Of a stretch of DNA of 64,000 nucleotides, positions 1,337-51,356 are shown in pieces. Source of the DNA: a virus. Taxonomy: Duplodnaviria; Caudoviricetes. Numbering within the stretch: position 1 is the first letter of the stretch; the number at the start of each line of letters is the position of its first letter. The stretch spans positions 189,297 to 253,296 of IMG/VR virus record IMGVR_UViG_3300021256_000002; one strand, 5' to 3'. The notes beneath the pieces are model-generated. The model was not told the origin of the DNA. It searched no databases and saw only the letters and a program-made list of their open reading frames with translations. Position numbers and translations under genes: made by a program.

Positions 1337-2554
1337 ATGGAATTGTTTGAAAAAGGAATTCCTAACAACCTCAGTCGCCAGTCACTGAAAAAGGCTGGTA
1401 AATCGAAAAAGAAAATCGAAAAGGTACTTGCTGCAAATTTGCCGATGCTGGTAGATTTCTACTTTGGCAAGTATCAGAAAGGAGATGTTCGTGCTAAGTA
1501 TGAAGGTACGATTCTCCAGTTGCTTGGTTCACACGATTACTTCGTTGAACCGTTAGCAAGGCTGGTTAAGAAACTGGCTAAGCATAAGGAACTCGATGAG
1601 CTCCCGGCTGGTTTGTCTACGGTTCTGATGGATAACTTGGATGCTGTGCGTTCAATGTATCAGAAACAGAAGGCTAAGCTTTGCAGTAACGATAAGGTGA
1701 AGATTGATGATGTTACGGCAGCACGTCTTGACACGATGACTCGCTTGAGCGAACGTCTGATTCAGGAAACGACTGAAATCTGTAAGGTTATCAATACCAA
1801 AATCGTGAAGAAACTTGTGAAGGAACTTGGTATCGAACGCAAATATGCTGAGGAATTGGCATGCTGCTATGTGCCGAGTGAATATCTCAATACCAAAAAC
1901 ATTCGTCGGTATGTATATCGGCTGAATCTTACTCTGTATTCCGTACAGGGCGTTGGTGTTGTGAATTCCGCATCGGATGATGCTGATAGCAAGTGGACTA
2001 ACACGATTGGGGCAAACCTGAGCGATCCTGAAACCATCAAGAAGATTTATGAAATCTTCTTCAAGGGGATTAACCGTAAGACGTTTATCTCTTTGCTGAT
2101 TGGTATCATGCTCGAACGCCGTGGCGGCAAGCTTGAACATTTCAAGGATCCGCAGCGTTGGCTTTACAATGACATCAGCACTCTTGTGTTGAATGTTCTT
2201 GAGGGCACTGACTTCATCAATATCGAAAAAGAGAAGTTGTCTAAGAAGAAGGCCAAGAAAGTTCTGCCTATTAACAAGAAGGAACTCAAAGCGTTCATGA
2301 AGATTTATTCCGATGAAAAGGCACGTGATGCTATGCGGAATAATGATTCTCCGCGTCGTGTATCCTTCACTTCGTTGAGTGAAGAAGACTATCCGAAGAT
2401 TCGGAAAGCATTCCGTTCATCCACGAAGGATTACTTCAACGACTTGTTTGATGATGCACCGCAGCAGAATCAGAACCACAACAGACCCAACAATCAGAAG
2501 GGTCAGAACAACAATAACCGACAGAACCAGAATAACAATCGTCGGGATAAGTAA
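1337..2554 (+). CDS. Hypothetical protein with N/Q-rich C-terminal tail
   Basis: 405-aa ORF, AAGGAGG RBS, early promoter upstream, terminator downstream. Confidence 0.85.
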   Translation: MELFEKGIPNNLSRQSLKKAGKSKKKIEKVLAANLPMLVDFYFGKYQKGDVRAKYEGTILQLLGSHDYFVEPLARLVKKLAKHKELDELPAGLSTVLMDNLDAVRSMYQKQKAKLCSNDKVKIDDVTAARLDTMTRLSERLIQETTEICKVINTKIVKKLVKELGIERKYAEELACCYVPSEYLNTKNIRRYVYRLNLTLYSVQGVGVVNSASDDADSKWTNTIGANLSDPETIKKIYEIFFKGINRKTFISLLIGIMLERRGGKLEHFKDPQRWLYNDISTLVLNVLEGTDFINIEKEKLSKKKAKKVLPINKKELKAFMKIYSDEKARDAMRNNDSPRRVSFTSLSEEDYPKIRKAFRSSTKDYFNDLFDDAPQQNQNHNRPNNQKGQNNNNRQNQNNNRRDK

Positions 2555-2574
2555 GTCATAAGAGTTGATATTGT

Positions 2575-2609
2575 GGGCCCAGTTGGAATTGATACTGGGT
2601 CCTTTTTTT
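2575..2609 (+). terminator. Intrinsic terminator
   Basis: GGGCCCAGT/ACTGGGTCC stem followed by T7. Confidence 0.75.
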
Positions 2610-2630
2610 ATTCAAAAGGAGTATCTAGTT

Positions 2631-3617
2631 ATGATTACAATATACAATGAAATACCAGGTCGTAAAAGTTGGTCTGTAGTTGAAACGTACAAGAATAAGT
2701 ACGTTATCAAGAATGAAACCAATGAAAACCTTAATATAGATATTAATACAGATGGAAAAAACAAGTATGCTCAGGATATTGGACAAGCGTTTGACAAATC
2801 TACTACAAAATCCAATGTAACCTGTCACTTTAGTTACGGTACTGAAATCGGATTTAGTGCTAAATCCGGTAATCCGTATATCAGCAAGATTAGCGATGAG
2901 CCGACAGAATATGAACGTAATATCGTATTCATTACGCTTTATCTGCTGAATGACTTGGTGAATATTGGTGTAAAGAATGCTACGGTATACGAGCATGATT
3001 ATGATAGCGAAAATCATATTCTTACTATGGTGCTTTCTGCTGATAGAAAAGACACGAGCGATTACAAGGATATGGCTTTTCTGTACATCATCACCTCTGA
3101 TGGTAAAGAGGGGTATGAACGGTTGGTGTATCGGGTGAATGGACGGGAAATCAATTTGACCGCTAGGAGTACGTATTCTTCAGAAGATAGAATCCCTCGT
3201 AATAGTCATGGTTTGCCGAGATTCAGCACTAAGAGCATGATTATCAAGGACGTCAATGGAATTCCTAAACTGGCATTTCCTGTGTTCCGTCCTCGTCGTC
3301 CGTCTACGAATGTTATCTGCTGCTCTCAGAAGAGCATTCAGAGCGCGATTGATATCTTGACTGAAAAGTACCGGTATGAACCAAATTCCAAACGATTGGT
3401 ACTTCATACTCCAGCAGATTCCAAGGAATTGAAAAAGAAAATTGATTTCTTGGTTAAATACGGTATCAAGTACATCACGTACTTCTTCCCGACTGTTGAC
3501 AAGAAAGAGGTTTTCTCACCTGAGTTCTTGAGCAAGATGTATACCAACTACCGTGGGTACTACTTCAACCATATTGCTATTATGGATGCTGAAGGTAAAA
3601 TCTACCACATTTGCTAA
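2631..3617 (+). CDS. Hypothetical protein
   Basis: Start moved to ATG 2631 behind AAAGGAG. The track start at 2565 runs through the terminator. Confidence 0.8.
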   Translation: MITIYNEIPGRKSWSVVETYKNKYVIKNETNENLNIDINTDGKNKYAQDIGQAFDKSTTKSNVTCHFSYGTEIGFSAKSGNPYISKISDEPTEYERNIVFITLYLLNDLVNIGVKNATVYEHDYDSENHILTMVLSADRKDTSDYKDMAFLYIITSDGKEGYERLVYRVNGREINLTARSTYSSEDRIPRNSHGLPRFSTKSMIIKDVNGIPKLAFPVFRPRRPSTNVICCSQKSIQSAIDILTEKYRYEPNSKRLVLHTPADSKELKKKIDFLVKYGIKYITYFFPTVDKKEVFSPEFLSKMYTNYRGYYFNHIAIMDAEGKIYHIC

Positions 3618-3636
3618 TCATAAAACTGAATAAATT

Positions 3637-3674
3637 TAATTCCCTAGAGGTTCCAAACCTCTAGGGAATTTTTT
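3637..3674 (+). terminator. Intrinsic terminator
   Basis: AATTCCCTAGAGGT/ACCTCTAGGGAATT stem plus T tract. Confidence 0.8.
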
Positions 3675-3743
3675 AAAGTAGATTATAAATACATATTATA
3701 TTCGTGACACAAATTTAATCTATAATTGAAAGGATGAAAGATA

Positions 3744-5126
3744 ATGACAGTTAGAGGAAAGATAATTGAAGCGTTAGAAAAACGTGCAAGAAGAGCTGCT
3801 ATATTCGAACAAGTTGGTGGATATAGTACGTCTTCTTTGCTACTTGATAGTTTATTGAAAAGTGATAAGAAAGGATTATTCAAGGTCGATAACACTTCTA
3901 TTTTCGGGTTTCCTTCTGGAAATCCGCTTATTGACGCCTTGAATGGATATTTGGTCTGTGTACCAAATAAAGACCATACAGATTTAGACCATACTTGGTA
4001 TAATAAAGGTATCATGGGTGGTCAGTTCATTATGGTAATTGGTAACTCTGGTGTAGGTAAATCTGCATTCTGTATTCAATGCGCTGCCAACATCGTAAAA
4101 GATTATGATGAAGGATTGGTTATTCATGCAGATGCAGAACATACTTCAAGTTATCCTCATATCATGAATCTCACTGGTTGGGGTCCTGATTTGATGGATA
4201 CGAAATATCGTCTGAATGAAATCAACTATATCGAGGACTTGCGCGCTGCGATTATTGATATTGCTCGTATCAAGGAAGAACATAAGAAAGAGTTGATTAT
4301 CCATACGGGTCGATATGATTCTTTCGGTAGAGAAATCAAAATTTATGTGCCGACGGTAATTATCGCAGATTCGTTACCTCAGTTCCAGACGAAAGAAATC
4401 CTTGATAAGGATGGTAATGTTCAGGCAGAACAGGAAGGTCAGACTTATGATATGCGCTTAGCTGCTGCTTATAGTAAGTTCTATAAAATCATGAGACCAA
4501 TTCTTCATGATAAGAATATCATTCTGTTTGTAACCAATCATATCAAGGAGAAACCTCAGATGGGCTTTACGAAGAAACAAGCCAAGATTCAAGGTCTATC
4601 CCCAGATGAAACTTTGCCGGGTGGTAGTGCACCGATTTATCTGTCTCAGTCTTTGATTAGATTGATTTATCGTGGTAAATGCATTACTGAAAAGCATGGT
4701 TTCAATGGTTATGTTACTGCCGTACAGACGCTCAAATCCAAAACAAATCGTTCTGATTTGACTGTTGAGTTGGTATTTGAACATGGTAAAGGATTCAACA
4801 CCCCATTATCTATGTTGAGATTTGCTGATAGTCTTGGTCTTGTTGGTGGTAGAAATCCGTACAGATATTTCACTGCTAATCCAGATAAGAAATTTAGTAC
4901 GAAGAATTTCTGTGATTCCATCGACAAGGACCCTGAGATATACCAAACTCTGCTGAAGATAACAGAACCTTATATCAACAACATTTGTGCATCGAACAAA
5001 GCTTTCAATCCGAACAAGGATATCTCAGCCGCACAGCTTGAAAGTGTTGTTGATAACTCGTTCCATATGTACAAAGACGTTAGCAAAGATACTTTAGCTG
5101 ACGCATTAGAGGGGATTGGAGCATGA
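3744..5126 (+). CDS. recA: RecA/UvsX-like recombinase
   Basis: Walker A GNSGVGKS, HADAEH, Walker B IIADS, VTNHI, PGGSA, KSKT. Confidence 0.9.
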   Translation: MTVRGKIIEALEKRARRAAIFEQVGGYSTSSLLLDSLLKSDKKGLFKVDNTSIFGFPSGNPLIDALNGYLVCVPNKDHTDLDHTWYNKGIMGGQFIMVIGNSGVGKSAFCIQCAANIVKDYDEGLVIHADAEHTSSYPHIMNLTGWGPDLMDTKYRLNEINYIEDLRAAIIDIARIKEEHKKELIIHTGRYDSFGREIKIYVPTVIIADSLPQFQTKEILDKDGNVQAEQEGQTYDMRLAAAYSKFYKIMRPILHDKNIILFVTNHIKEKPQMGFTKKQAKIQGLSPDETLPGGSAPIYLSQSLIRLIYRGKCITEKHGFNGYVTAVQTLKSKTNRSDLTVELVFEHGKGFNTPLSMLRFADSLGLVGGRNPYRYFTANPDKKFSTKNFCDSIDKDPEIYQTLLKITEPYINNICASNKAFNPNKDISAAQLESVVDNSFHMYKDVSKDTLADALEGIGA

Positions 5127-28500: not shown

Positions 28501-30925
28501 TTAGATAGTGCAGAAATTGTACAGGCTAATTGTTTCGTCTTTGATGAAACCGAAATCTGAATTAATTAAACCATTATTATGGTCAATCATAAAGCCTGTT
28601 CTTGGGAAGAAGACTTCCTTAAATGCACGTTTAAACTCAGTTGTAATTTCCTTGGTGATATTCAAAGTATCTCCATCAACAGTATCTTCACATAGAGTCG
28701 TTACTTCTATGCAGTTCTCTTATGAACTTCTCCATGTCACCATGGAAGTTGAGACTATATCTTTCTTCCTATATAGGAAGTACCCCATTTCGATTTAAGG
28801 GATTCTCACCCACTCACTTGAGCCCTACTCCTGTAGCCGATTCTAACGGCACCATTTGGATAGTCGTTGAACGTTCCTATTTTCATAAGCTTCGCTGCTG
28901 ATTGTCTCATTTGAGAGTTTCCAGCAATTAAAGGTTTGGTGAATCATAGATTACTCTATGAAACGACCTAATTTAAGTCAGCATTCAGAGATTGTAAACA
29001 CTGAATAGGTAAACTACAACTAAGGTCAGAATAATCATCCTTAACTGAGGCCACGTTCATAGCTAAATATGACCCCATATTGATTGTTGGATTCCGATTG
29101 AGTAAAATCGACGAGTCGAGTTTTTCATGCGTAAGGATATACTGCATGATGCTATATACCTTAGTATCAAATTCTCGATACGCATAATACCATCTCTCAT
29201 ATGCTTGTGAGTATGAATAACCTTCTAATTTAACCAGAAGGTTAACGATATCAGGCTTCCACAACTCACAGAACGCTACATCCTTTATATTCACATAGAT
29301 TCGTTACTTCTATGCCGTTCTCTTATGAACTGCTACATGTCTCCATGTAGAGTAGACTATATCACCAACTCATATAGAGTTGCTCTCTATTTCGAGTTCA
29401 CTTGAACCCTACTCCCATAAAGGGATAGTCGTTGAACATTCCTCCGTAGAGGCTTCGCTGCTGATTGTCTCATATGAGAGTTCCCAGCAATTAAGAGAGT
29501 TTTACATATTATATCACTATAATACGCCGCTAATAACTAACGGTAAGCGTACTTCATATGAACGCAATGACGCATCCGGTACAATAACGCATCTAGCTGC
29601 ATTGTTAATACGACCACCTAAAATCGATCTCCTTATACCTTACATTCACATAGAGTCGTTACTTCTATGCAGTTCTCTTATGAACTTCTGCATGTCATCA
29701 TGCAGAGTAGACTATATCTTCATCCTATTCGATATGAATAGGAGGCTGCTGTTTCGATTTAAGGGGTTTTCACCCGCTCACTTGAGCCCTACTCCTGTTG
29801 ACGAATTTCACGTCCTAAGGGATAGTCGTTGAACGTTCTCTCTTACGAGAGCTTCGCTGCTGATTGTCTCGTTTTGTGATAGCTTGTATCCACGAGATTT
29901 CCCAGCAATTAAGCAACTTTTCCTATACAATTACTCGTATAGGGACCTATAAAGTTAAGCCCTTCGTTTTCATGAATAGACGTAAATACAGAATCGAATA
30001 CCTGGTTAAGATTATTCTGTGCTCTAAAGAGCGTATTGTTAAGTTTTGCAATATTACTGGTTTTGATTTCATGCTCATCATTGATACGACAAACGTTACC
30101 ATATAAGGCGTTGTAACATCTATCTACTTTTCTATATGAGAATTTCTCATTAGAGAAGAATACTTCACGTAATACTGCGGAATAAACCGGAATTTTAGTT
30201 ACGAAGATTTTATTCTTATTCTCCATGATGAGGTCATATTGTGCCTTGCGGTTTTTCTTCTTCCGGTAGAAGAAATCCATAATCTCATCAAATCTTTCGT
30301 GGAATTCTATCATACCAATTCCGGCGAAAGGATTCTTGTTAAGGTCTACATCAGTCGTTCCTCCATAGAAACCATCAAGTTTCATATCTTTATCAAATCC
30401 AATGATTTGAGACAGAATAGAGGTTTTATTTGCTTTACCAAAGAACACATCAAGTTCTTTATAGAGTAATGGTTGAATGATAGAGAATCTTGCATCGTTA
30501 ATCACTATATAAGCAAAGAGCTTGAGGTTCACATCTACGAACTCAACCTTTGTCCCGCAATCAGGGCATCTACGACCTTTGAAAATCTTACCAATCATCT
30601 TACCACAATCGCATGAATATCTGTCGGCGAATGCGTTATCATCGAGCCAATCGGTGCCAAACAACGGAGAATGGATACCATACATTTCTTTAGTTCCTTT
30701 AGCCGATGGTTCAGAACTCTTATCGTTCTTAGGATTCTTCTTAAACGGTTTTGCTCTTACGATGAAACCGAATTTACGTTTCATATCGTTCTCAAAGTCA
30801 GCTTCCCAATCACGAATAACTGGCATAGGACCAATCGTCTCTGCATTGTACAGCTCAGGAACCAATTGCTGTGCAAGTTCGAGTTCTTTCGGCGTTAAGT
30901 TATAATCGATACCTATATTCTTCAC
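28501..30925 (-). CDS. rpoC: Multisubunit RNA polymerase beta-prime N-terminal subunit, four exons (30925-29958, 29637-29540, 29281-28976, 28679-28501; 516 aa spliced)
   Basis: Zn finger CDCG...CPDC. Splicing restores EGLIRRSILGGRINNAARCVIVP, RLPYVAF, NRNPTI and the catalytic NADFDGD. Frame is preserved at all three junctions. Confidence 0.93.
28680..28975 (-). mobile_element. Group I intron 3 of the beta-prime gene (296 nt, no ORF), inside the NADFDGD codons
   Basis: Exon ends GAC-T, intron ends in G, next exon starts TT-GAT-GGA-GAT. Core AATTGCTGGAAAC, AATCAGCAG, TTCAACGACTA, GATATAGTCT. Confidence 0.93.
29282..29539 (-). mobile_element. Group I intron 2 of the beta-prime gene (258 nt, no ORF)
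   Basis: Exon ends CCG-T (pairs with IGS GCGG), terminal G, restores TAT (Tyr); same core motifs. Confidence 0.92.
29638..29957 (-). mobile_element. Group I intron 1 of the beta-prime gene (320 nt, no ORF)
   Basis: Exon ends GGG-CT (IGS GGTCCCT); P10 CTTTATA pairs with the 3' exon TATAAGG; terminal G; same core. Confidence 0.92.
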
Positions 30926-35751: not shown

Positions 35752-38700
35752 TTAAATCATGATATCCGATTCGTCAACAATCTTTTCGATGTGTAAACAA
35801 CCATCATGATAGTTGTTCTTCATCTTGAAAGAACATGCGTCTTTCATCAATTGATACTTCGCATCGTAGTAATTAATGGCATCTTTGCCACCAATCCATA
35901 TCACCAACGTACCTTCCTTTTCCGCTTCATTACAGAGTTCCTCCGCAATAGTATATTCTCTATTCTGAGGTTCTGGTGTACTATCAAAGTACAATCCATC
36001 TGTCTTAGCGAATGGGACGACTGCGCCCGAGAGGCCTGGCGAGGATGATGAATACGTATTAATATCCAGATTGCCAATAAACGATGGATGAACACCACGT
36101 CATTATCTTCATATAGGGTCGTTAATCCTATACCGTTCTCTTATGAACTGCTGCATGTCACCATGCAGATGAGACTATATCTTCATCCTTGATAATTATC
36201 AAGGAGCCTCCTGTTTCGATTTAAGGGGTTCTCACCCACTCACTTGAGCCCTACTCCTATTGACGAGTTTCACGTCCAAGGGATAGTCGTTGAACTTTTA
36301 ATTCATAATAATCCGCGCTTTTTTAAACTCTTTTTTCTTAAATAGACCAAGCTTCGCCATTGTTGTGATGTGAAATTTGGTATATCTATAAGTTTACGGA
36401 TTTTCTTAGTTTTTAATCCTTTTAAAATTAATGCGTCGACTTGCTCATGGTATTTGGTATAATCTGGTCTAGAATAAACGTTTGGAAACTCGATATCTTT
36501 AGTAAATTCTTTCCAAATATGTTTATTTTTTATATCTGATAATTCAGATGATGATAAGTTAGTCTTTTTGGTAATTTTAGAATAAGGTTCATTCTTAAGA
36601 AGCATTTTAATTGCTTTTTTGACCTGTTTTTCGGTATGAGTTGTTGCATGATGTGATATACCATGTGGTAGATTAATCAAATTGTTACGATAAGCTCGTT
36701 GAACGTTAGTTTGATTACTTACCCATTCTAAATTAGATGGTACATTATTAGATTTATTCCCATCGATATGATCTACTTGTGGTAAATTATCAGGGTTAGG
36801 AACAAATGCATCAGCTACCAGCCTATGAACTTTTTTCTTTTTACCTCTAAGACTTGCGTTAAGATATAACTCTCTAGGCTCTCCTGACTTAGGAAGCCTG
36901 CCGGTTTTCTGTAACTTTAATTTTTTACCAGTTATACGATTAATAACTTCACCTCTACTAGAAACAGAGTACATGTCATCAATCGCTTTCCAAATTTCAA
37001 TAGTTTCCATATATTTCCTTTCTAGGATTATTATGAATTATTTAGCTGCTGATTGTCTCATATGAGAGTTCCCAGCAATTAAAGAGGGTACAATATATGA
37101 TTACTCATATACGGACCAGTTATGTTTAGCCGTATATTGACATTGTGACTCGATTTACTTCCGATCGAATTCGGCAAGGATCTTCGTATAAGTTCGTTAA
37201 GCTTATACCGTTCTCTTATGAACTGCTCTATATCACTATAGAAGTTGAGACTATATCTTTCTTCCCATAGGGAAGTTACCCATTTCGATTTAAGGGATTC
37301 TCACCCACCACTTGGCCCTACTCCTGTAGCAGACTTTCACTGCGTCAATTGGATAGTCGTTGAACGTTCTCTCATATGAGAGCTTCGCTGCTGATTGTCT
37401 CTTTCGAGAGGTTCCAGCAATTAAGGTATTGACGAATATAGGATTACTCCTATAATCAGGCCCTGACAACCTTTAATGGTATACTTTAATGCGCTAAATG
37501 TATCAAGATCATTTACTAAGTCATCGAATCTCATGAGCTGACTGTTCTGCATAGCCTGTATTACGAGGTTTCCAGAGAAGCTGAATATATTCGTTATGAC
37601 TTGATCAATATCAACTTTATTACCAAATGTAAGAATTCGATTTCATTATCTTCATATAAGTTCGTTAGGCTTATACCGTTCTCTTATGAACTGCTATATA
37701 TTGCTATATAGATGAGACTATATCATCATCTCAGAGAGATGGTTTCTATTTTGAACCACTTGGTCCTATTAGTCGTTGAACGTTCCTCCGTAGAGGCTTC
37801 GCTGCTGATTGTCCCAGAGGGAGTTCCCAGCAATTAAGAAACTTTGCTAATACCATCGCTGATATTAGGCGCAAAAATCTACGCTTTCACCGATTCTCAT
37901 TGATAATAAAGATGCGATACATTCGCCCAAACGTAATCGTTTAGTTGACAAATCGAGGTTATTCTTCTGACGTAATTCAGGGAAATTCTGTACCATCCAG
38001 CGGACTATACTGTAGATGGATATCTTATTTACCTGATTGATTTTAAGAACATCCTTTGACGTCAGGTCCAAAAGACGTTCAAAGAAACGCATGGTACTCT
38101 TACCAGAGTCCATCATCTTATCTGTATTCTTAGTATACAAACTACCGAGCTGTCCTAGCCAGTAGTCCTTGGTTACAATGTCTTCAATATGGGTCTTTGG
38201 AGCAAAGCATTCTCCCAACATTCCAACCATCGCTTTGATATAATCAAAGTTATCGAAGAAATGCTTATTGACTACCAATACAACATGCTTATTTGCATTG
38301 AAGTAGTAGTAATCTTTATCTGGTTCATCGGGTAAATCTTCATTAGCAATAACGGAGATTATCCTATCTACCATATAATAGGTAAGAGTCTTTGCAAAAC
38401 CCATCTTACAGAAGTAGAACAGCAGTACAGAGATGCTTCTACGGAATACCTTCATATAGAATACATTGAAGGTATATTCTTTCTCAGAGAATATCTCTTT
38501 GATAGTAGCCTTTCTATAATTTACCGGGATTGGCTGTAACGATTTGAATACCAAACCATCTTTCACTACATAAGTAGATGAATCAACCAACTGGTAGATT
38601 AAGAAGTATCTTTTACCCTTGAGGAAATAATAATTATTCTTATCTCTCTTAGGTAACAAGATAGACCGCTTTACATAACGTACAGCTCCATTTACTTCTA

Positions 38701-46723: not shown

Positions 46724-46778
46724 AACAAAAGAAAGCAGGTTGGATGTAGAGTCCACCTGCTTTTTTCTTGTTTGGAGT

Positions 46779-47186
46779 TTACTCCCACGGGAAGCGGCTA
46801 GAGAAGCTGCTGCGTTTTACCGCAACTTCTTCTCTGATTTGATACTCGCGCTCTGCAGAGCGCGCGTCTCTACGCTCTTCTTCAGCGTAGTGGCGTGCTC
46901 TACGGAGTTCGTTGAACAACACACGATAACGTGCACTGTCGCTCGAGGTTGCGCGGGGGTCGCGGAGCCACTGCTCCAACGAGCGGCATTCACGTTCGAG
47001 CCGCTCGACTTCGCTCAACCAGTAATTGCACCGGCGAGCGTGCAGTTCATACTTATCGTATGACTGCTGGGCGCGGTCTGCCGCCCATTGGTAATCATCC
47101 TCAGCTTGTTGGCGACGAGATTCCTTAATGGAATCCGTAACATCATCCAGAACGCCGAGTAACCAGTTACCAAGGATCGTTGCCAT
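46779..47186 (-). CDS. Early R/E-rich helical hypothetical protein (monocistronic cassette)
   Basis: AGGAGG RBS, promoter at ~47292, terminator at 46728-46769, GC-rich. Confidence 0.8.
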   Translation of the reverse strand: MATILGNWLLGVLDDVTDSIKESRRQQAEDDYQWAADRAQQSYDKYELHARRCNYWLSEVERLERECRSLEQWLRDPRATSSDSARYRVLFNELRRARHYAEEERRDARSAEREYQIREEVAVKRSSFSSRFPWE

Positions 47187-47349
47187 GATAAATTCCTCCT
47201 AAGAATTATCATCTCCCGTACGCATTGGGAGGAATCCTAAAAGCTATCTTAGCGAATGAAGTTGGATTCGACTCTTCATCTACCAATATAATATATATTT
47301 GAGGTAATCAACTTTTAGGTATTATATTCTAAGCCATAAACATAATAGT

Positions 47350-47788: not shown

Positions 47789-48952
47789 TCATTCTCTAGT
47801 ACGCTGAATTGTTATAACGAAGAATGTAAATATTGCTTTACGGAAGAATCCTACCGTACCAACTGCATTATGCTTCTTATAATCAGCGGAATATTTATCA
47901 ATCCATTTGTCTAGGATATCTTTGATTTTTATGATGTTGGGGTCTTGGGTATTAGCCCTTTTATAGACACCCATGCAGAATACAAAGAATTCACTACCAT
48001 GAAGATTCTCTTTACTATTATTAGCATCGAAGAGGAATAGATATAAGATAGCGCTTATCAAATCATGCATATCAGTACGAGTTGCTCTATCTTTGCAAAT
48101 AGCATCAATACAATTCCTGAGAGCATTTACGCTTACATCATTTCCTTTTGCTGCAACTCTTACCAAAGTACTATTAGGACCTTGAGTACTCATCTTCATT
48201 ACTACAGCATCAGCAGTTCGAGTAATCAAATAGCTATTACTATCCGCAGTAGAGAAGTTTTCTTCATCCTCATTATCAGTCTCAAAGTTCAAATAGTTCT
48301 TCAGTTCATGTTGTTTCATGAATTCCTTAGTGAAATTTTTCATGAAGCCATTCAATCTGGTTTTGATAGAAAGAATGTAATCTACAATATCTTTATCATT
48401 ACCTCGAATGATTTGTTTAGCATAATGCTCATCTGAACGTACAGATGTTTCAACGATTGCCTGTAAGAGATTACCAGTTTGCTTGAGTTTGAACTTCTCA
48501 CTCATCTGATTGATTGTATACGCAACAATCTGCTCATTTGGTTCGTATTTGAAATACTTTCGATGAATAGAAGAATACATACTCAAAGCAATATATAATA
48601 CAGCTGAATTCTTATACTTCGTATTCTTATTGATAGCAAAGAATCGAATAATTAAAGCCATGATGATATTAAAAGAATTACCAGCGTTGGTATTCTCTTT
48701 AATCGAAGGAGATTTCTTAACAATCGTGTCAATTTGCTCAGGGGTCAATCCAATAAGATTGAATACCTTATTACGGTCACCATCGGTAAATATCAATCGT
48801 TTGGTTGGACCAATTGTACTGAGTCTGTCAATATTTTTATCAACGTAAGCACTTACAATTTCATTGAACTTATCCTGATTTCGTTTATTTGATAAAACAG
48901 ATTTTACCTTAGGATATAAGGCATCTATAACTAAAGTTGTCATAAATTTCAC
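47789..48952 (-). CDS. Hypothetical late protein
   Basis: 387-aa ORF behind GACA-N6-TAA (48980-48968). Confidence 0.8.
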   Translation of the reverse strand: MKFMTTLVIDALYPKVKSVLSNKRNQDKFNEIVSAYVDKNIDRLSTIGPTKRLIFTDGDRNKVFNLIGLTPEQIDTIVKKSPSIKENTNAGNSFNIIMALIIRFFAINKNTKYKNSAVLYIALSMYSSIHRKYFKYEPNEQIVAYTINQMSEKFKLKQTGNLLQAIVETSVRSDEHYAKQIIRGNDKDIVDYILSIKTRLNGFMKNFTKEFMKQHELKNYLNFETDNEDEENFSTADSNSYLITRTADAVVMKMSTQGPNSTLVRVAAKGNDVSVNALRNCIDAICKDRATRTDMHDLISAILYLFLFDANNSKENLHGSEFFVFCMGVYKRANTQDPNIIKIKDILDKWIDKYSADYKKHNAVGTVGFFRKAIFTFFVITIQRTRE

Positions 48953-49062
48953 CTACTTATCATATCATTAAAGTTCTGTCGGATTATAGTAAATTCCTAG
49001 AAATACCTATATATAAATATATATTATATTGGTAGATACATCGAACGAAAGGAGGTGTTAAT

Positions 49063-49509
49063 ATGTTCGTTCGCTGGATCGGTGCTTTCAGAAAGCACGA
49101 AGGTGGGGTTCTCGATTCTATCTCCTATGAGATGGGACGAGAAGACCCCGCTGCGTGTGAGCGTATCACACGTAACAGCAAGACCGAAGTTTTCGCGCGT
49201 GTTGGTCTTGCTGTGAAACCCGACCACGTGTACCGCAATTTCCAGAGTGATGTCTGGAGTGTGTATACGGAGGACGGCCAGCTGAAGAGGACTCGTAATG
49301 AGTCTACTTCACGATGGAAAGAATCCTGGTGTAAACCAGGAGGCTTCGATGCTATCGTAATATCAGCTGGTTGGTGGACGCTACGCAAACATGTCCGTGA
49401 GGACATCAAGCTGGCATCTGCTGAATTCGGTCTTCGTATCCTGCAACTTAAGAAGGATAAGGTGCAGGATATTACGTCTTTCGCTCACTGTGCCGAAGCA
49501 ACGCAGTGA
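49063..49509 (+). CDS. Early hypothetical protein
   Basis: Promoter at 49016, AAAGGAGG RBS, GC-richer. Confidence 0.8.
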   Translation: MFVRWIGAFRKHEGGVLDSISYEMGREDPAACERITRNSKTEVFARVGLAVKPDHVYRNFQSDVWSVYTEDGQLKRTRNESTSRWKESWCKPGGFDAIVISAGWWTLRKHVREDIKLASAEFGLRILQLKKDKVQDITSFAHCAEATQ

Positions 49510-49950
49510 GCAATCCTTCAATACCACATAAGGAGGTGGTTAAATTGCTTCACGTATCCTTCCGCCCCAGTCCTCAGGGGTGCTATGTTAGCTACGTTGT
49601 TAGCTAATGTAGTGTGGGTTTTGGGCAAACCGCTGAAAACAGGCACCCAGGCCAACGTTGCCGAAGTAGTCCACTGGAACTATCAGTTAGTCGCGATAGT
49701 TCTGCAGTGGTGACGCGAGAAGGAGAGGAGAGTAGGTTCCACTCTGAACGGTCCGTGTCCATGCCTTGTAACGATACGAAGAATCGCATGGGACGTCTTC
49801 ACTGGAGGCGGCGACACCAGTGCGGGGAGTCAATTTGTCGTAAGACTTCCGAGGAGCAGGCGCTCTAAGTGAAATCCCCGAGCGGGAGCCAAGGTTGACG
49901 ACCTTGATGGGGAGAGTAATAAACTTTATTGAAGAAAGGGTGTGATTCCA
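49510..49950 (+). ncRNA. Candidate large structured ncRNA (~440 nt)
   Basis: About ten GC-rich helices, several with G-U pairs, 5'/3' closing pairings, terminator at 49963-49993. Confidence 0.6.
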
Positions 49951-50045
49951 ATGAACTAAGTTGAAGAAAGAGCGTTGCTCTTTCTTTTCTTTTATCAGCC
50001 CATCGGACAGCACTTTAAAGATTAATAAGAAAGCGAGGGTTACAA

Positions 50046-51356
50046 ATGGGCGTTTTTAAAACTTCTAATTTTGTACCGTTAAGTAATGCTGCTATGGAAA
50101 GCATTGATATGGGGATGCTTGATCTTGGTGATCATGGATTTGGTCTTGCTGAAGCGATGATTCCAGTACAAGAAGGATACGTTGGTAAAACCAAGAATAT
50201 TGCAAAGATTGAGCACCTCTTCGGTGTTATGCAGCAGAAATATCCTACTCGTGATATCTTTGAGCGGTCTCGTAAAGACCTCGAAGATTGTCCTGAGAAA
50301 AGAGAAATTGAAAGCCTTATCTGTAAAGAATTTGGCTTTCGTTCAGCTTGTTTGGGAGTAAGTGTAATCAAGATGGTAAACGGCATAACAGTGCCTCGGT
50401 CTGTTCTGATTCGTGATGCTACGACTGGTATGCCTAGAGGACTTACTCTCCATGGTGAGAAATGGTATGATAGTGCACATCAGTATGATTTCTTCTGCTT
50501 GATGTTCACTGAAAACTTCCAGAAACTTACTCCAGGTGAATTGACTGCGTTACTGCTCCATGAAATTGGTCATTGCTTCGATATCACTACAATGACGTTC
50601 ATTGCAGACGTATTCAACTGGTTGTGCTGTGTTGCTACTGGTCCTATCAGTATATTCACTAATTACTTCAGAACTAATATTGCGAAGTATTTGTACAAAT
50701 TCGTTGATTTGTTAGAGAATATCACACCGGTTTCTATTCTGGTAAATGCTGGTCTGACTGTAAATGACTTACTGGTCATGATTGCTGGTCCATACGGTTC
50801 TATTAGCTATATGGGTAGAATGCTAGTTGGTGGATTGATTAACCTTATTACTGAACCTGGAACTACGGTAATGAAAGCTCTGTCTGGTATCGGTAAAGAA
50901 AAGTTTGCTGATTCATTTGCCACAGCATATGGTTATGGTCCTGAACTTATTTCCTTGATGGATAAGCTGGATACGTATTACATTACGACAAACAAAACCA
51001 TTATCGCTGATACGTGGACTTGGGCTGGTTCAATTGCTCCAACCATCATGAATTTGCTCATGAGCACCCATCCGGAGGCTCAGACTCGTGCTCGCATGGC
51101 GTTGGATGATTTACGGAAACTCAGCGAGAATCCGAATCTTCCGAAGCATATTCGTGCATCGGTTAAGAAAGATTACGAGAATGCAAAAGAAGCATATGCG
51201 TTATTCCTTCAGGTTGAACCTGATACAAGAGATGCAATCGCTCTTCGTTTCTCCCGTAATCTTAAAGAGAATATTCTTAGTGGTAAGATGGACTTAAGAA
51301 CTTATTTCTACACTACCAGTGCAATACAGGATGGTATTCGTTCTGCTTATAGATAA
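50046..51356 (+). CDS. Zincin-like (HExxH) metalloprotease, probable virion protein
   Basis: ALLLHEIGH, EKFADSFA, THP; GACA-N6-TAA at 50006-50018. Confidence 0.8.
   Translation: MGVFKTSNFVPLSNAAMESIDMGMLDLGDHGFGLAEAMIPVQEGYVGKTKNIAKIEHLFGVMQQKYPTRDIFERSRKDLEDCPEKREIESLICKEFGFRSACLGVSVIKMVNGITVPRSVLIRDATTGMPRGLTLHGEKWYDSAHQYDFFCLMFTENFQKLTPGELTALLLHEIGHCFDITTMTFIADVFNWLCCVATGPISIFTNYFRTNIAKYLYKFVDLLENITPVSILVNAGLTVNDLLVMIAGPYGSISYMGRMLVGGLINLITEPGTTVMKALSGIGKEKFADSFATAYGYGPELISLMDKLDTYYITTNKTIIADTWTWAGSIAPTIMNLLMSTHPEAQTRARMALDDLRKLSENPNLPKHIRASVKKDYENAKEAYALFLQVEPDTRDAIALRFSRNLKENILSGKMDLRTYFYTTSAIQDGIRSAYR

Follow-up and report, generated by a model that had tools for sequence, protein, structure and literature searches.

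The closest described counterparts of the RNA reported here are ROOL, GOLLD, OLE and raiA, with which it shares a length of several hundred nucleotides, many covarying helices, conserved unpaired blocks, an association with phages of Firmicutes-type hosts and a function that is not deducible from sequence. Large structured RNAs with solid covariation are rarely found, and most of the known ones are without a function. Those that are fused to a protein gene, such as the TnpB/IscB omega-RNA, ToxIN, retrons and OLE, usually form ribonucleoproteins (RNPs) with that protein. Here we describe a locus in a stretch of 64,000 nucleotides (hereafter the window), which comprises bases 189297-253296 of a 253,296-bp jumbo phage record with direct terminal repeats from the ruminant gut (IMG/VR record IMGVR_UViG_3300021256_000002). 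In it, an RNA of ~480 nt with about ten helices, an H-type pseudoknot and a conserved single-stranded core directly follows the gene for a 148-aa protein with a predicted ADP-ribosyltransferase (ART) fold. Comparison with relatives shows a structured RNA of a new family attached, within one transcription unit, to a gene of a likewise new family with predicted ART fold; the unit is ordered as promoter-like motif, 148-aa open reading frame (ORF), RNA and intrinsic terminator. The conservation of the pair suggests an enzyme-plus-RNA module that had escaped recognition.

This RNA is matched by none of the Rfam models of ROOL, GOLLD, OLE and raiA even at E<=10 and, unlike them, is fused to the 3′ end of one protein gene and carries a ribosome-binding site (RBS) with a mini-ORF at both ends. 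It resembles the type III toxin-antitoxin systems (ToxIN, TenpIN, AvcID), which are thought or known to form an RNP, in combining a small protein gene and an adjacent non-coding RNA in one transcription unit; in those systems, in contrast, the RNA lies upstream and mostly consists of short tandem repeats, whereas a single long, unique RNA lies downstream here, and the protein is predicted from its model to be ART-like rather than an endoribonuclease or deaminase. With the TnpB/IscB omega-RNA (HEARO), which is bound by the protein encoded alongside it, it shares a structured RNA contiguous with the protein gene on the same transcript, but at this locus neither nuclease nor transposon features are seen, the Rfam model of HEARO is not matched, nothing points to guiding, and the protein is a 145-aa ART-fold type. 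Neither in Rfam nor in the literature did we find this RNA described, or an ART that has a large RNA of its own encoded beside it. The RNA comes with a functional lead, in that it is always encoded behind a small enzyme of predicted ART fold, a class for which activity on RNA, DNA and ribosomal proteins has recently been demonstrated in conflicts between phages and their hosts. Should gene and RNA act together, the module would represent the first case of an ART that has its own RNA as subunit, regulator or substrate. We class the locus as a protein gene with an attached large structured RNA, with a modest chance that it represents an RNA-directed modifying enzyme of an altogether new category.

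The 148-aa protein has 36 close metagenomic homologs, which fall into two clades: clade W (L018-L021), 95-96% identical to the window protein, and clade O (L009-L017, L148-L155), 52-64% identical to it. Every contig that is long enough shows the same layout, namely a gene of ~145 aa, a stretch of 510-580 nt without a called gene and a terminator, and close copies of the locus stretch are present in gut metagenomes of sheep and cattle. Directly behind the same gene family, the RNA is present in at least 12 distinct metagenomic phage sequences of the two clades (nhmmer on the RNA stretch yields E-values of 1e-77 to 1e-160 within clade O). The adjacency is kept over 52-96% protein identity and in different surroundings, with a phrog_2921 protein and an M48-like peptidase flanking the module in the window; in clade O its neighbors are PhoH, an amidase and an opposite-strand gene of 241 aa. 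In L150 (976-2858) and L151 the gene and RNA are tandemly duplicated as a unit (a 147-aa gene with its RNA, then a 148-aa gene with its RNA), and the two copies have diverged in protein and RNA. An earlier note on this DNA, made from the sequence alone, had proposed the RNA as a possible partner of the upstream 148-aa protein; the strict synteny in both clades despite different flanks and the tandem duplication of the unit both favor that proposal.

The same linkage bears on whether the RNA might act independently in trans, riding on the transcript with no tie to the enzyme, either as a decoy or sponge for ribosomes or a host factor or as a self-assembling RNA comparable to ROOL and GOLLD. The very strong Shine-Dalgarno (SD) sites at both of its ends would suit such a role, and ROOL, GOLLD and other large phage RNAs act without a dedicated protein, but every case found adjoins this gene family, across two clades and different contexts, and no free-standing copy without the gene was found in IMG/VR, the GenBank phages or a genome scan, the searches being shallow. 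We accordingly give this explanation only a slim chance. Among 50,697 GenBank phages, neither BLASTN with the locus nor tblastn with three proteins of the family recovered a match. In IMG/VR, P0200, the protein, an RNA motif and the close alignment gave nothing or chance matches when used as queries, and P0210 recovered four distant protein loci without a long RNA gap. A degenerate RNA-motif scan of genome contigs gave at least 120 chance matches, with none confirmed by nhmmer among the matches listed.

The features of the module, all on the + strand, are as follows (R1 and R2 are covariance models described below):

49010..49038, +: promoter-like motif (AATATATATTATATTGGTAG core) preceding the module, with 12 genome sites at <=6 mismatches.

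49063..49509, +: gene for the 148-aa protein of predicted ART fold, whose isoelectric point (pI) is 9.05 and whose family is unannotated.

49510..49995, +: the structured non-coding RNA in full, with a tentative 5′ boundary directly behind the ORF stop and ending in the T-run of the terminator; conserved in 12 distinct sequences.

49530..49607, +: 5′ SD site (AAGGAGGTGG, 49530-39), TTG start at 49545 and 20-codon ORF; the block AAGGnnGTGrTTrAATTG is nearly invariant among the aligned sequences, with a few single-base departures.

49565..49580, +: hairpin P1 (CCCC/GGGG; CUCCUG/CAGGAG in clade O), at the same position in both clades with a different stem sequence.

49582..49613, +: hairpin P2 (13 bp in the window; a longer branched hairpin in clade O), in which the variant 49609 G>A replaces U-G pairing by U-A.

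49614..49746, +: domain 2, a core of several helices with the single-stranded invariant blocks GGGnAAAC, CACCCAGnCCAA and GAGAGG and a two-tier hairpin (49671-84/49695-710); match of model R1.

49746..49865, +: domain 3, with GAACGG, hairpin Pa (49758-64/49786-92) and an inner hairpin, the pseudoknot, Pc (49825-31/49844-50) and Pd (49854-57/49862-65); match of model R2.

49794..49822, +: H-type pseudoknot, with stems S1 (49794-98/49806-10) and S2 (49800-05/49817-22), in 12 of 12 sequences.

49876..49912, +: three-way element at the 3′ side specific to clade W, with CCCC/GGGG closing a 2-bp tetraloop hairpin and CAAGG/CCUUG; clade O has a long irregular hairpin here.

49935..49959, +: 3′ SD-like site and mini-ORF ATG AAC TAA (49951-59), ahead of the terminator in both clades and in the distant L022.

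49963..49995, +: intrinsic terminator, an 11-bp stem (49963-73/49977-87) followed by a T-run, read from the sequence; all relatives have a terminator at the same place with different stems.

Comparison of the relatives confirms 49510-49995 as a real, conserved and non-coding RNA, predicted to be highly structured and belonging to no known family. No Rfam 15 family was matched in 48900-50100 at the gathering score, and at E<=10 with lax filters the only matches were chance-level ones of at most 24 bits to unrelated families; the families covered include ROOL, GOLLD, OLE, HEARO, raiA, RNase P, 6S and the group I and II introns, and the same scan detected five group I introns elsewhere in the window. 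ARAGORN found no tRNA or tmRNA gene in 48900-50100, and TRF found no tandem-repeat array in the RNA. The earlier note's claim of a new large RNA, for which it had suggested an Rfam comparison, is thus supported by the absence of a family match as well as by the many compensatory pairs and the covarying pseudoknot; nothing in the results favors the ribozyme that the note had named as an alternative. Several other identities were considered and rejected: the resemblance to RNase P (GAGG...UCC / ACAGAAC) occurs in one clade only and comes without an Rfam match; mimicry of the sarcin-ricin loop had GAGAGG alone as its basis and was dropped; the fold is not rod-shaped as in a 6S-like RNA; and a frameshift signal is at odds with a pseudoknot ~285 nt beyond the ORF stop. 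The energy of the single-sequence fold is modestly better than that of shuffled sequences (z -2.58); the case for the RNA rests on comparative evidence and not on energy.

The coding alternative, whether as a pseudogene, a frameshifted gene or several small proteins, can draw on stop-free stretches of 84-108 codons in single sequences of the region and on the SD-led short ORFs at both ends. No reading frame is open across the relatives, however, near-identical strains differ by 1- and 2-nt indels that would break the stop-free frames, and the ORFs of the region match no Pfam or PHROG family. The earlier note had raised the prospect that homologs would keep a reading frame rather than base pairs; we found the opposite, with no conserved ORF and with stem substitutions that come as compensating pairs, and we deem a decayed or unusual coding sequence barely credible.

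Across the two clades the gene-free stretch is alignable through the invariant blocks AAGGnnGTGrTTrAATTG, GGGnAAAC, CACCCAGnCCAA, GAGAGG, GAACGG, GTAACGA and GGGACG, between which the sequence differs and hairpins stand at the same places; in the 3′ third of the RNA the architecture differs between clades W and O. For clade O alone, RNAalifold predicts 115 pairs, 15 of them changed on both sides. The helices are too diverged for RNAalifold on a plain MAFFT alignment of the two clades, and we therefore relied on folding per clade and on model-based alignment, with the covariance models R1 and R2 built from clade O only and then used to find and align clade W. Model R1 (133 positions) matches the window over its full length at 49614-49746 (E 0.018 in 107 kb, 8e-5 locally), and model R2 (115 positions) matches the directly adjoining 49746-49865 (E 0.0011). 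In the resulting R1 alignment of 12 sequences (A8), pairing extends to 94.3% of cells, and two-sided changes are seen in 11 of the 34 pairs, values reached by none of 500 shuffles, with slid controls at 31-50% pairing. For the R2 alignment (A10), the figures are 97.9% of cells paired and 12 of 20 pairs with two-sided changes; here, too, none of 500 shuffles attains this, and the slid controls are beaten.

The pseudoknot was recovered by a direct search that is independent of these models, with S1 and S2 complementary in all 12 sequences. Four variants of S1 (CGCAG/CTGCG, CGTAG/CTACG, GCGAG/CTCGC and CGTCT/AGGCG) and three of S2 (GGAGA/TCTCC, GGTGG/CCACC and CACTGG/CCAGTG) occur, and the 3′ arm of S1 follows the 5′ arm of S2 without a spacer. 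Both crossing helices of the H-type pseudoknot are thus kept by compensatory change. A helix GCG/CGC outside hairpin Pa was rejected because it conflicts with the better-supported stem S1. Natural variation among strains points the same way: one ruminant strain combines 49674 C>T with 49707 G>A, 49680 C>T with 49699 G>A and 49683 T>G with 49696 A>T, keeping all these pairs of the two-tier hairpin, and another combines 49763 G>A with 49787 C>T, keeping the pair in hairpin Pa. The latter also swaps the tetraloop at 49884-87 (GGGA>UUCG) and carries 49879 C>T (C>U in the RNA), which leaves a wobble pair. Strain indels (1-3 nt) are confined to loops, linkers and unmodelled spacers, comprising a 3-nt deletion in the loop at 49638 that leaves a GAAA tetraloop, a 2-nt linker deletion at 49703 and single-base indels at 49529 and 49974.

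Among the helices that the earlier note had listed, 49582-94/49601-13, CCACTG+GAACTATC/GATAGTTC+CAGTGG, GTCCATGC/GCATGGGAC, CACTGG/CCAGTG, GGGAGTC/GACTTCC, GAGC/GCTC, CAAGGT/ACCTTG and CCCC/GGGG are all backed by covariation or natural variants. Its outer closure of CTTCAATA (49516-23) with TATTGAAG (49927-34) is not supported: in 96%-identical relatives the 3′ arm changes at 49924, 49925 and 49929 without compensation in the 5′ arm, and clade O has no counterpart. The listed GGTTTTGGG/CCCAGGCC and AGAGT/ACTCT stand as possible local pairings, but the alignment weakly favors an alternative, long-range closure of domain 2 by GGGU(49616-19)/ACUC(49741-44) and GGG(49623-25)/UCC(49738-40); the sole informative change, a G to A opposite U in L150a, agrees with the long-range version.

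The protein encoded ahead of the RNA belongs to a family without annotation, for which an exhaustive HMMER search recovered 165 cluster representatives (clusters at 50% identity; 43 at E<=1e-10), all metagenomic and nearly all of 130-160 aa. A search of BFVD by fold, a search of the ESM-Atlas by features and the cluster names likewise supplied no annotation. AlphaFold2 with a 137-sequence alignment models the window protein with a predicted local distance difference test (pLDDT) score of 91.9, and the best fold match, well clear of the others, is the mono-ADP-ribosyltransferase CteC (8ux2; VIA Z 8.9 over 129 residues, root-mean-square deviation 3.0, Foldseek prob 0.99). The next matches are the tRNA 2′-phosphotransferase Tpt1 (Z 4.7), DarT (Z 3.4-4.4), the Salmonella NAD-binding effector 7dn9, Scabin and TreX, all of them ART folds, with weaker partial matches to tRNA-splicing endonuclease and Hjc folds (Z 2.9-4.4, ~70 residues). 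Conserved residues are R4, W5, E23, E33, G48, D63, S66, L74 and E87, along with R78 in smaller alignments. R4, S66 and E87, which are conserved at 90-100% in the 137 sequences, are placed by the model within strands 2-6, 66-68 and 87-90, where they may form an R-S-E triad, in which Arg is expected on strand 1, Ser where a strand starts and Glu at the beginning of a later strand. On the strength of the model we assign the protein to the ART fold, and the family appears to be a previously unrecognised minimal ART lineage. Its members are basic, with a mean pI of 9.8.

The nearest counterparts of the protein among phage and bacterial ARTs connected with RNA or translation, T4 ModB, CmdT, RhsP2, Tpt1/KptA and DarT, share the ART fold and a phage or conflict-system context. 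Phage ARTs such as T4 ModB modify the translation machinery. ARTs that act on ribosomal proteins, mRNA or structured RNA likewise have precedent (PMC10468400, PMC11618068, PMC12340436). Unlike the family described here, none of these five is known to be encoded with a dedicated large RNA; the family has no sequence similarity to them that we could detect and, at ~145 aa, is much smaller than most. It also differs from CteC, the Chromobacterium mono-ART, which is 10% identical, has 276 aa with extra elements and acts on ubiquitin, a protein absent from bacteria.

Both ends of the RNA carry a strong SD properly spaced from a start codon, as the earlier note had spotted for the two RBS/mini-ORF features of the window. 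The 5′ mini-ORF has 20 codons in clade W, and in clade O it is always TTG, two sense codons and a stop, with codons 2-3 varying and the stop in frame in eight distinct sequences. The 3′ mini-ORF consists of ATG, 0-2 sense codons and a stop that lies 2-10 nt ahead of the terminator stem in both clades and in L022 (ATG TAG); L017 is the exception, in which the ORF continues through the terminator. In clade W the single sense codon is AAC, CAC or TAC (49954 being A, C or T), and ATG and TAA are constant. To judge by its known footprint, a ribosome standing at the stop of the 3′ mini-ORF would mask the terminator stem's 5′ arm.

This geometry is what would be expected of a cis-acting 3′ untranslated region, whose structure and two RBSs would serve the enzyme's own mRNA only, by blocking exonucleases, setting half-life or coupling termination or read-through to translation. 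Gene and RNA are co-linear in every case, with a terminator closing the RNA, and the presence of family members without it fits an optional regulatory add-on. Against this, ~480 nt with ten helices, a covarying pseudoknot and invariant single-stranded blocks exceed the needs of mRNA protection, for which the terminator hairpin suffices, and in clade O the next gene is on the opposite strand and there is no obvious read-through target. We rate this explanation as unlikely. Firmicutes have SD-type 5′ mRNA stabilisers, such as the cryIIIA STAB-SD, ermC and the polypurine stabiliser of phage SP82. Like these, the RNA has a strong element of SD type close to its putative 5′ end, with no requirement for a real protein, but its second SD site at the 3′ end is unexplained by a stabiliser model.

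That the RNA is instead a partner of the enzyme in an RNP of some kind, antidote modes included, is a reading to which we would assign about an even chance, given the synteny, the duplication as a unit, the basic protein and the analogy with other gene-fused RNAs. The RNA would arise as the 3′ portion of the mRNA that encodes the enzyme and would fold independently, and the basic enzyme would bind it during its own synthesis to form an RNP. The two RBSs would then load 30S subunits, which might both protect the RNA from 5′ exonuclease, in the manner of the Firmicutes SD-type 5′ stabilisers, and bring the bound enzyme beside the translation machinery; toward the enzyme, the RNA might serve to aim it, to restrain it or to be modified by it. 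In its most specific form, this would be a new RNP class in which a minimal phage ART is combined with a ~480-nt pseudoknotted RNA that docks on ribosomes via the two SD/mini-ORF sites and aims or gates ADP-ribosylation of the host translation machinery. We put this forward tentatively, as improbable in so detailed a form; if true, an enzyme that modifies protein or RNA under the direction of an RNA would be without known precedent.

A different kind of partnership is that of a type III-like toxin-antitoxin, with a toxic enzyme kept inactive by the RNA as an antidote, up to the point at which the RNA is degraded or displaced. Toxins of the ART type are frequent in defence and toxin-antitoxin systems (DarT, CmdT; PMC11618068, PMC11825919), and pairs of a protein with an RNA antitoxin exist (ToxIN, AvcID; PMC8860590, PMC10511110). 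The module is moreover compact, compositionally distinct and once duplicated as a unit. The RNA has no tandem repeats, however, and lies downstream rather than upstream of the gene; the phages hosting the module are large and virulent-looking, with no evident need to spare the host; and family members without the RNA exist. An antidote role is hence doubtful in our estimate. The likelihoods that we attach to these readings overlap and are not meant to sum to one.

Several observations weigh against the enzyme-RNA partnership or its components. The evidence for the RNA comes from only ~12 distinct sequences in two clades, and, as A8 and A10 were fitted to the model structure and L018 of clade W is misaligned in A10, their figures lean slightly towards structure. 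In some distant relatives within the protein family, hardly any gap separates the gene from the next one downstream (14 and 102 nt), from which it follows that the enzyme can work without such an RNA, and model R1 with filters off finds no match downstream of distant homologs, including L156 and L022. The ART assignment derives from fold and residue pattern only: neither the protein nor 42 relatives match Pfam or PHROG, and no ART emerges from profile searches of the PDB. In addition, CteC, the closest match by fold, modifies a protein and not a nucleic acid.

Other distant members of the family have downstream gaps of 230-710 nt, and single-sequence folds of distant 3′ regions give z -3.7 for L156 and z -2.5 for L022. 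On the sequence evidence, the RNA is proven only for the subfamily formed by clades W and O, and other subfamilies may have a diverged RNA, a different RNA or none. L156 (42% identity) has gene-free stretches of ~700 nt on both sides of the gene (2296-3000 and 3424-4132); its 709-nt downstream gap opens with AGAAAGGAGGTG, a 12-nt perfect SD, followed by ATG and a 20-codon ORF, and ends in a terminator. L158 (34% identity, 187-kb contig) has ~1.6 kb downstream (3424-5027) in which the only called ORFs are of 53-62 aa, and which is possibly more non-coding RNA.

The earlier note had described a GC-rich tract of ~440 nt in an AT-rich genome. The tract exists (GC 0.51 for 49510-49960 vs 0.379 for the whole 253-kb genome), but it is part of a larger island of ~900 bp that includes the 148-aa ORF (49063-49509, also 0.51); in most of the phages, gene and RNA together are 8-13 GC points above their flanks. 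The AATATATATTATATTGGTAG motif, which we regard as a putative promoter, precedes a small GC-rich gene at all 12 of its sites in the 253-kb genome. Behind one of these sites lies the 148-aa gene, whose early timing, as given in the earlier note, is putative. A second GC-rich island (window 46750-47190, GC up to 0.585) holds a minus-strand ORF of 135 aa (46779-47186) with only weak coiled-coil Pfam matches, which also belongs to the AATATATATTATATTGGTAG motif class. Given this motif class and the second island, GC richness is a trait of a class of small genes in this phage and not by itself a sign of RNA structure.

At several of these sites the AATATATATTATATTGGTAG motif is followed by one of two families of conserved leaders of ~70-90 nt ahead of small GC-rich genes. 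Family A (GATGAAGA..GAATCCA.CTTCATTCGC..GGATTCCTCCC..GGGAG) has four copies, one of which drives the 135-aa ORF, and family B has two; the leaders are located at 47200-47304 (-) in the window, at 110266(+), 101264(-) and 16449(-) in the genome, and also at 144244(+) and 16033(-). From their sequences, both families look like structured 5′ leaders or small RNAs. The gene past the terminator of the module (window 50046-51356) encodes a 436-aa protein with a sub-threshold Peptidase_M48 match and a phrog_2767 match, and the window also carries a gene for a Prp protease. The five group I introns, all at the Rfam gathering score (72.9-100.5 bits), form two clusters on the minus strand, at window 28730-29967 and 37226-37890.

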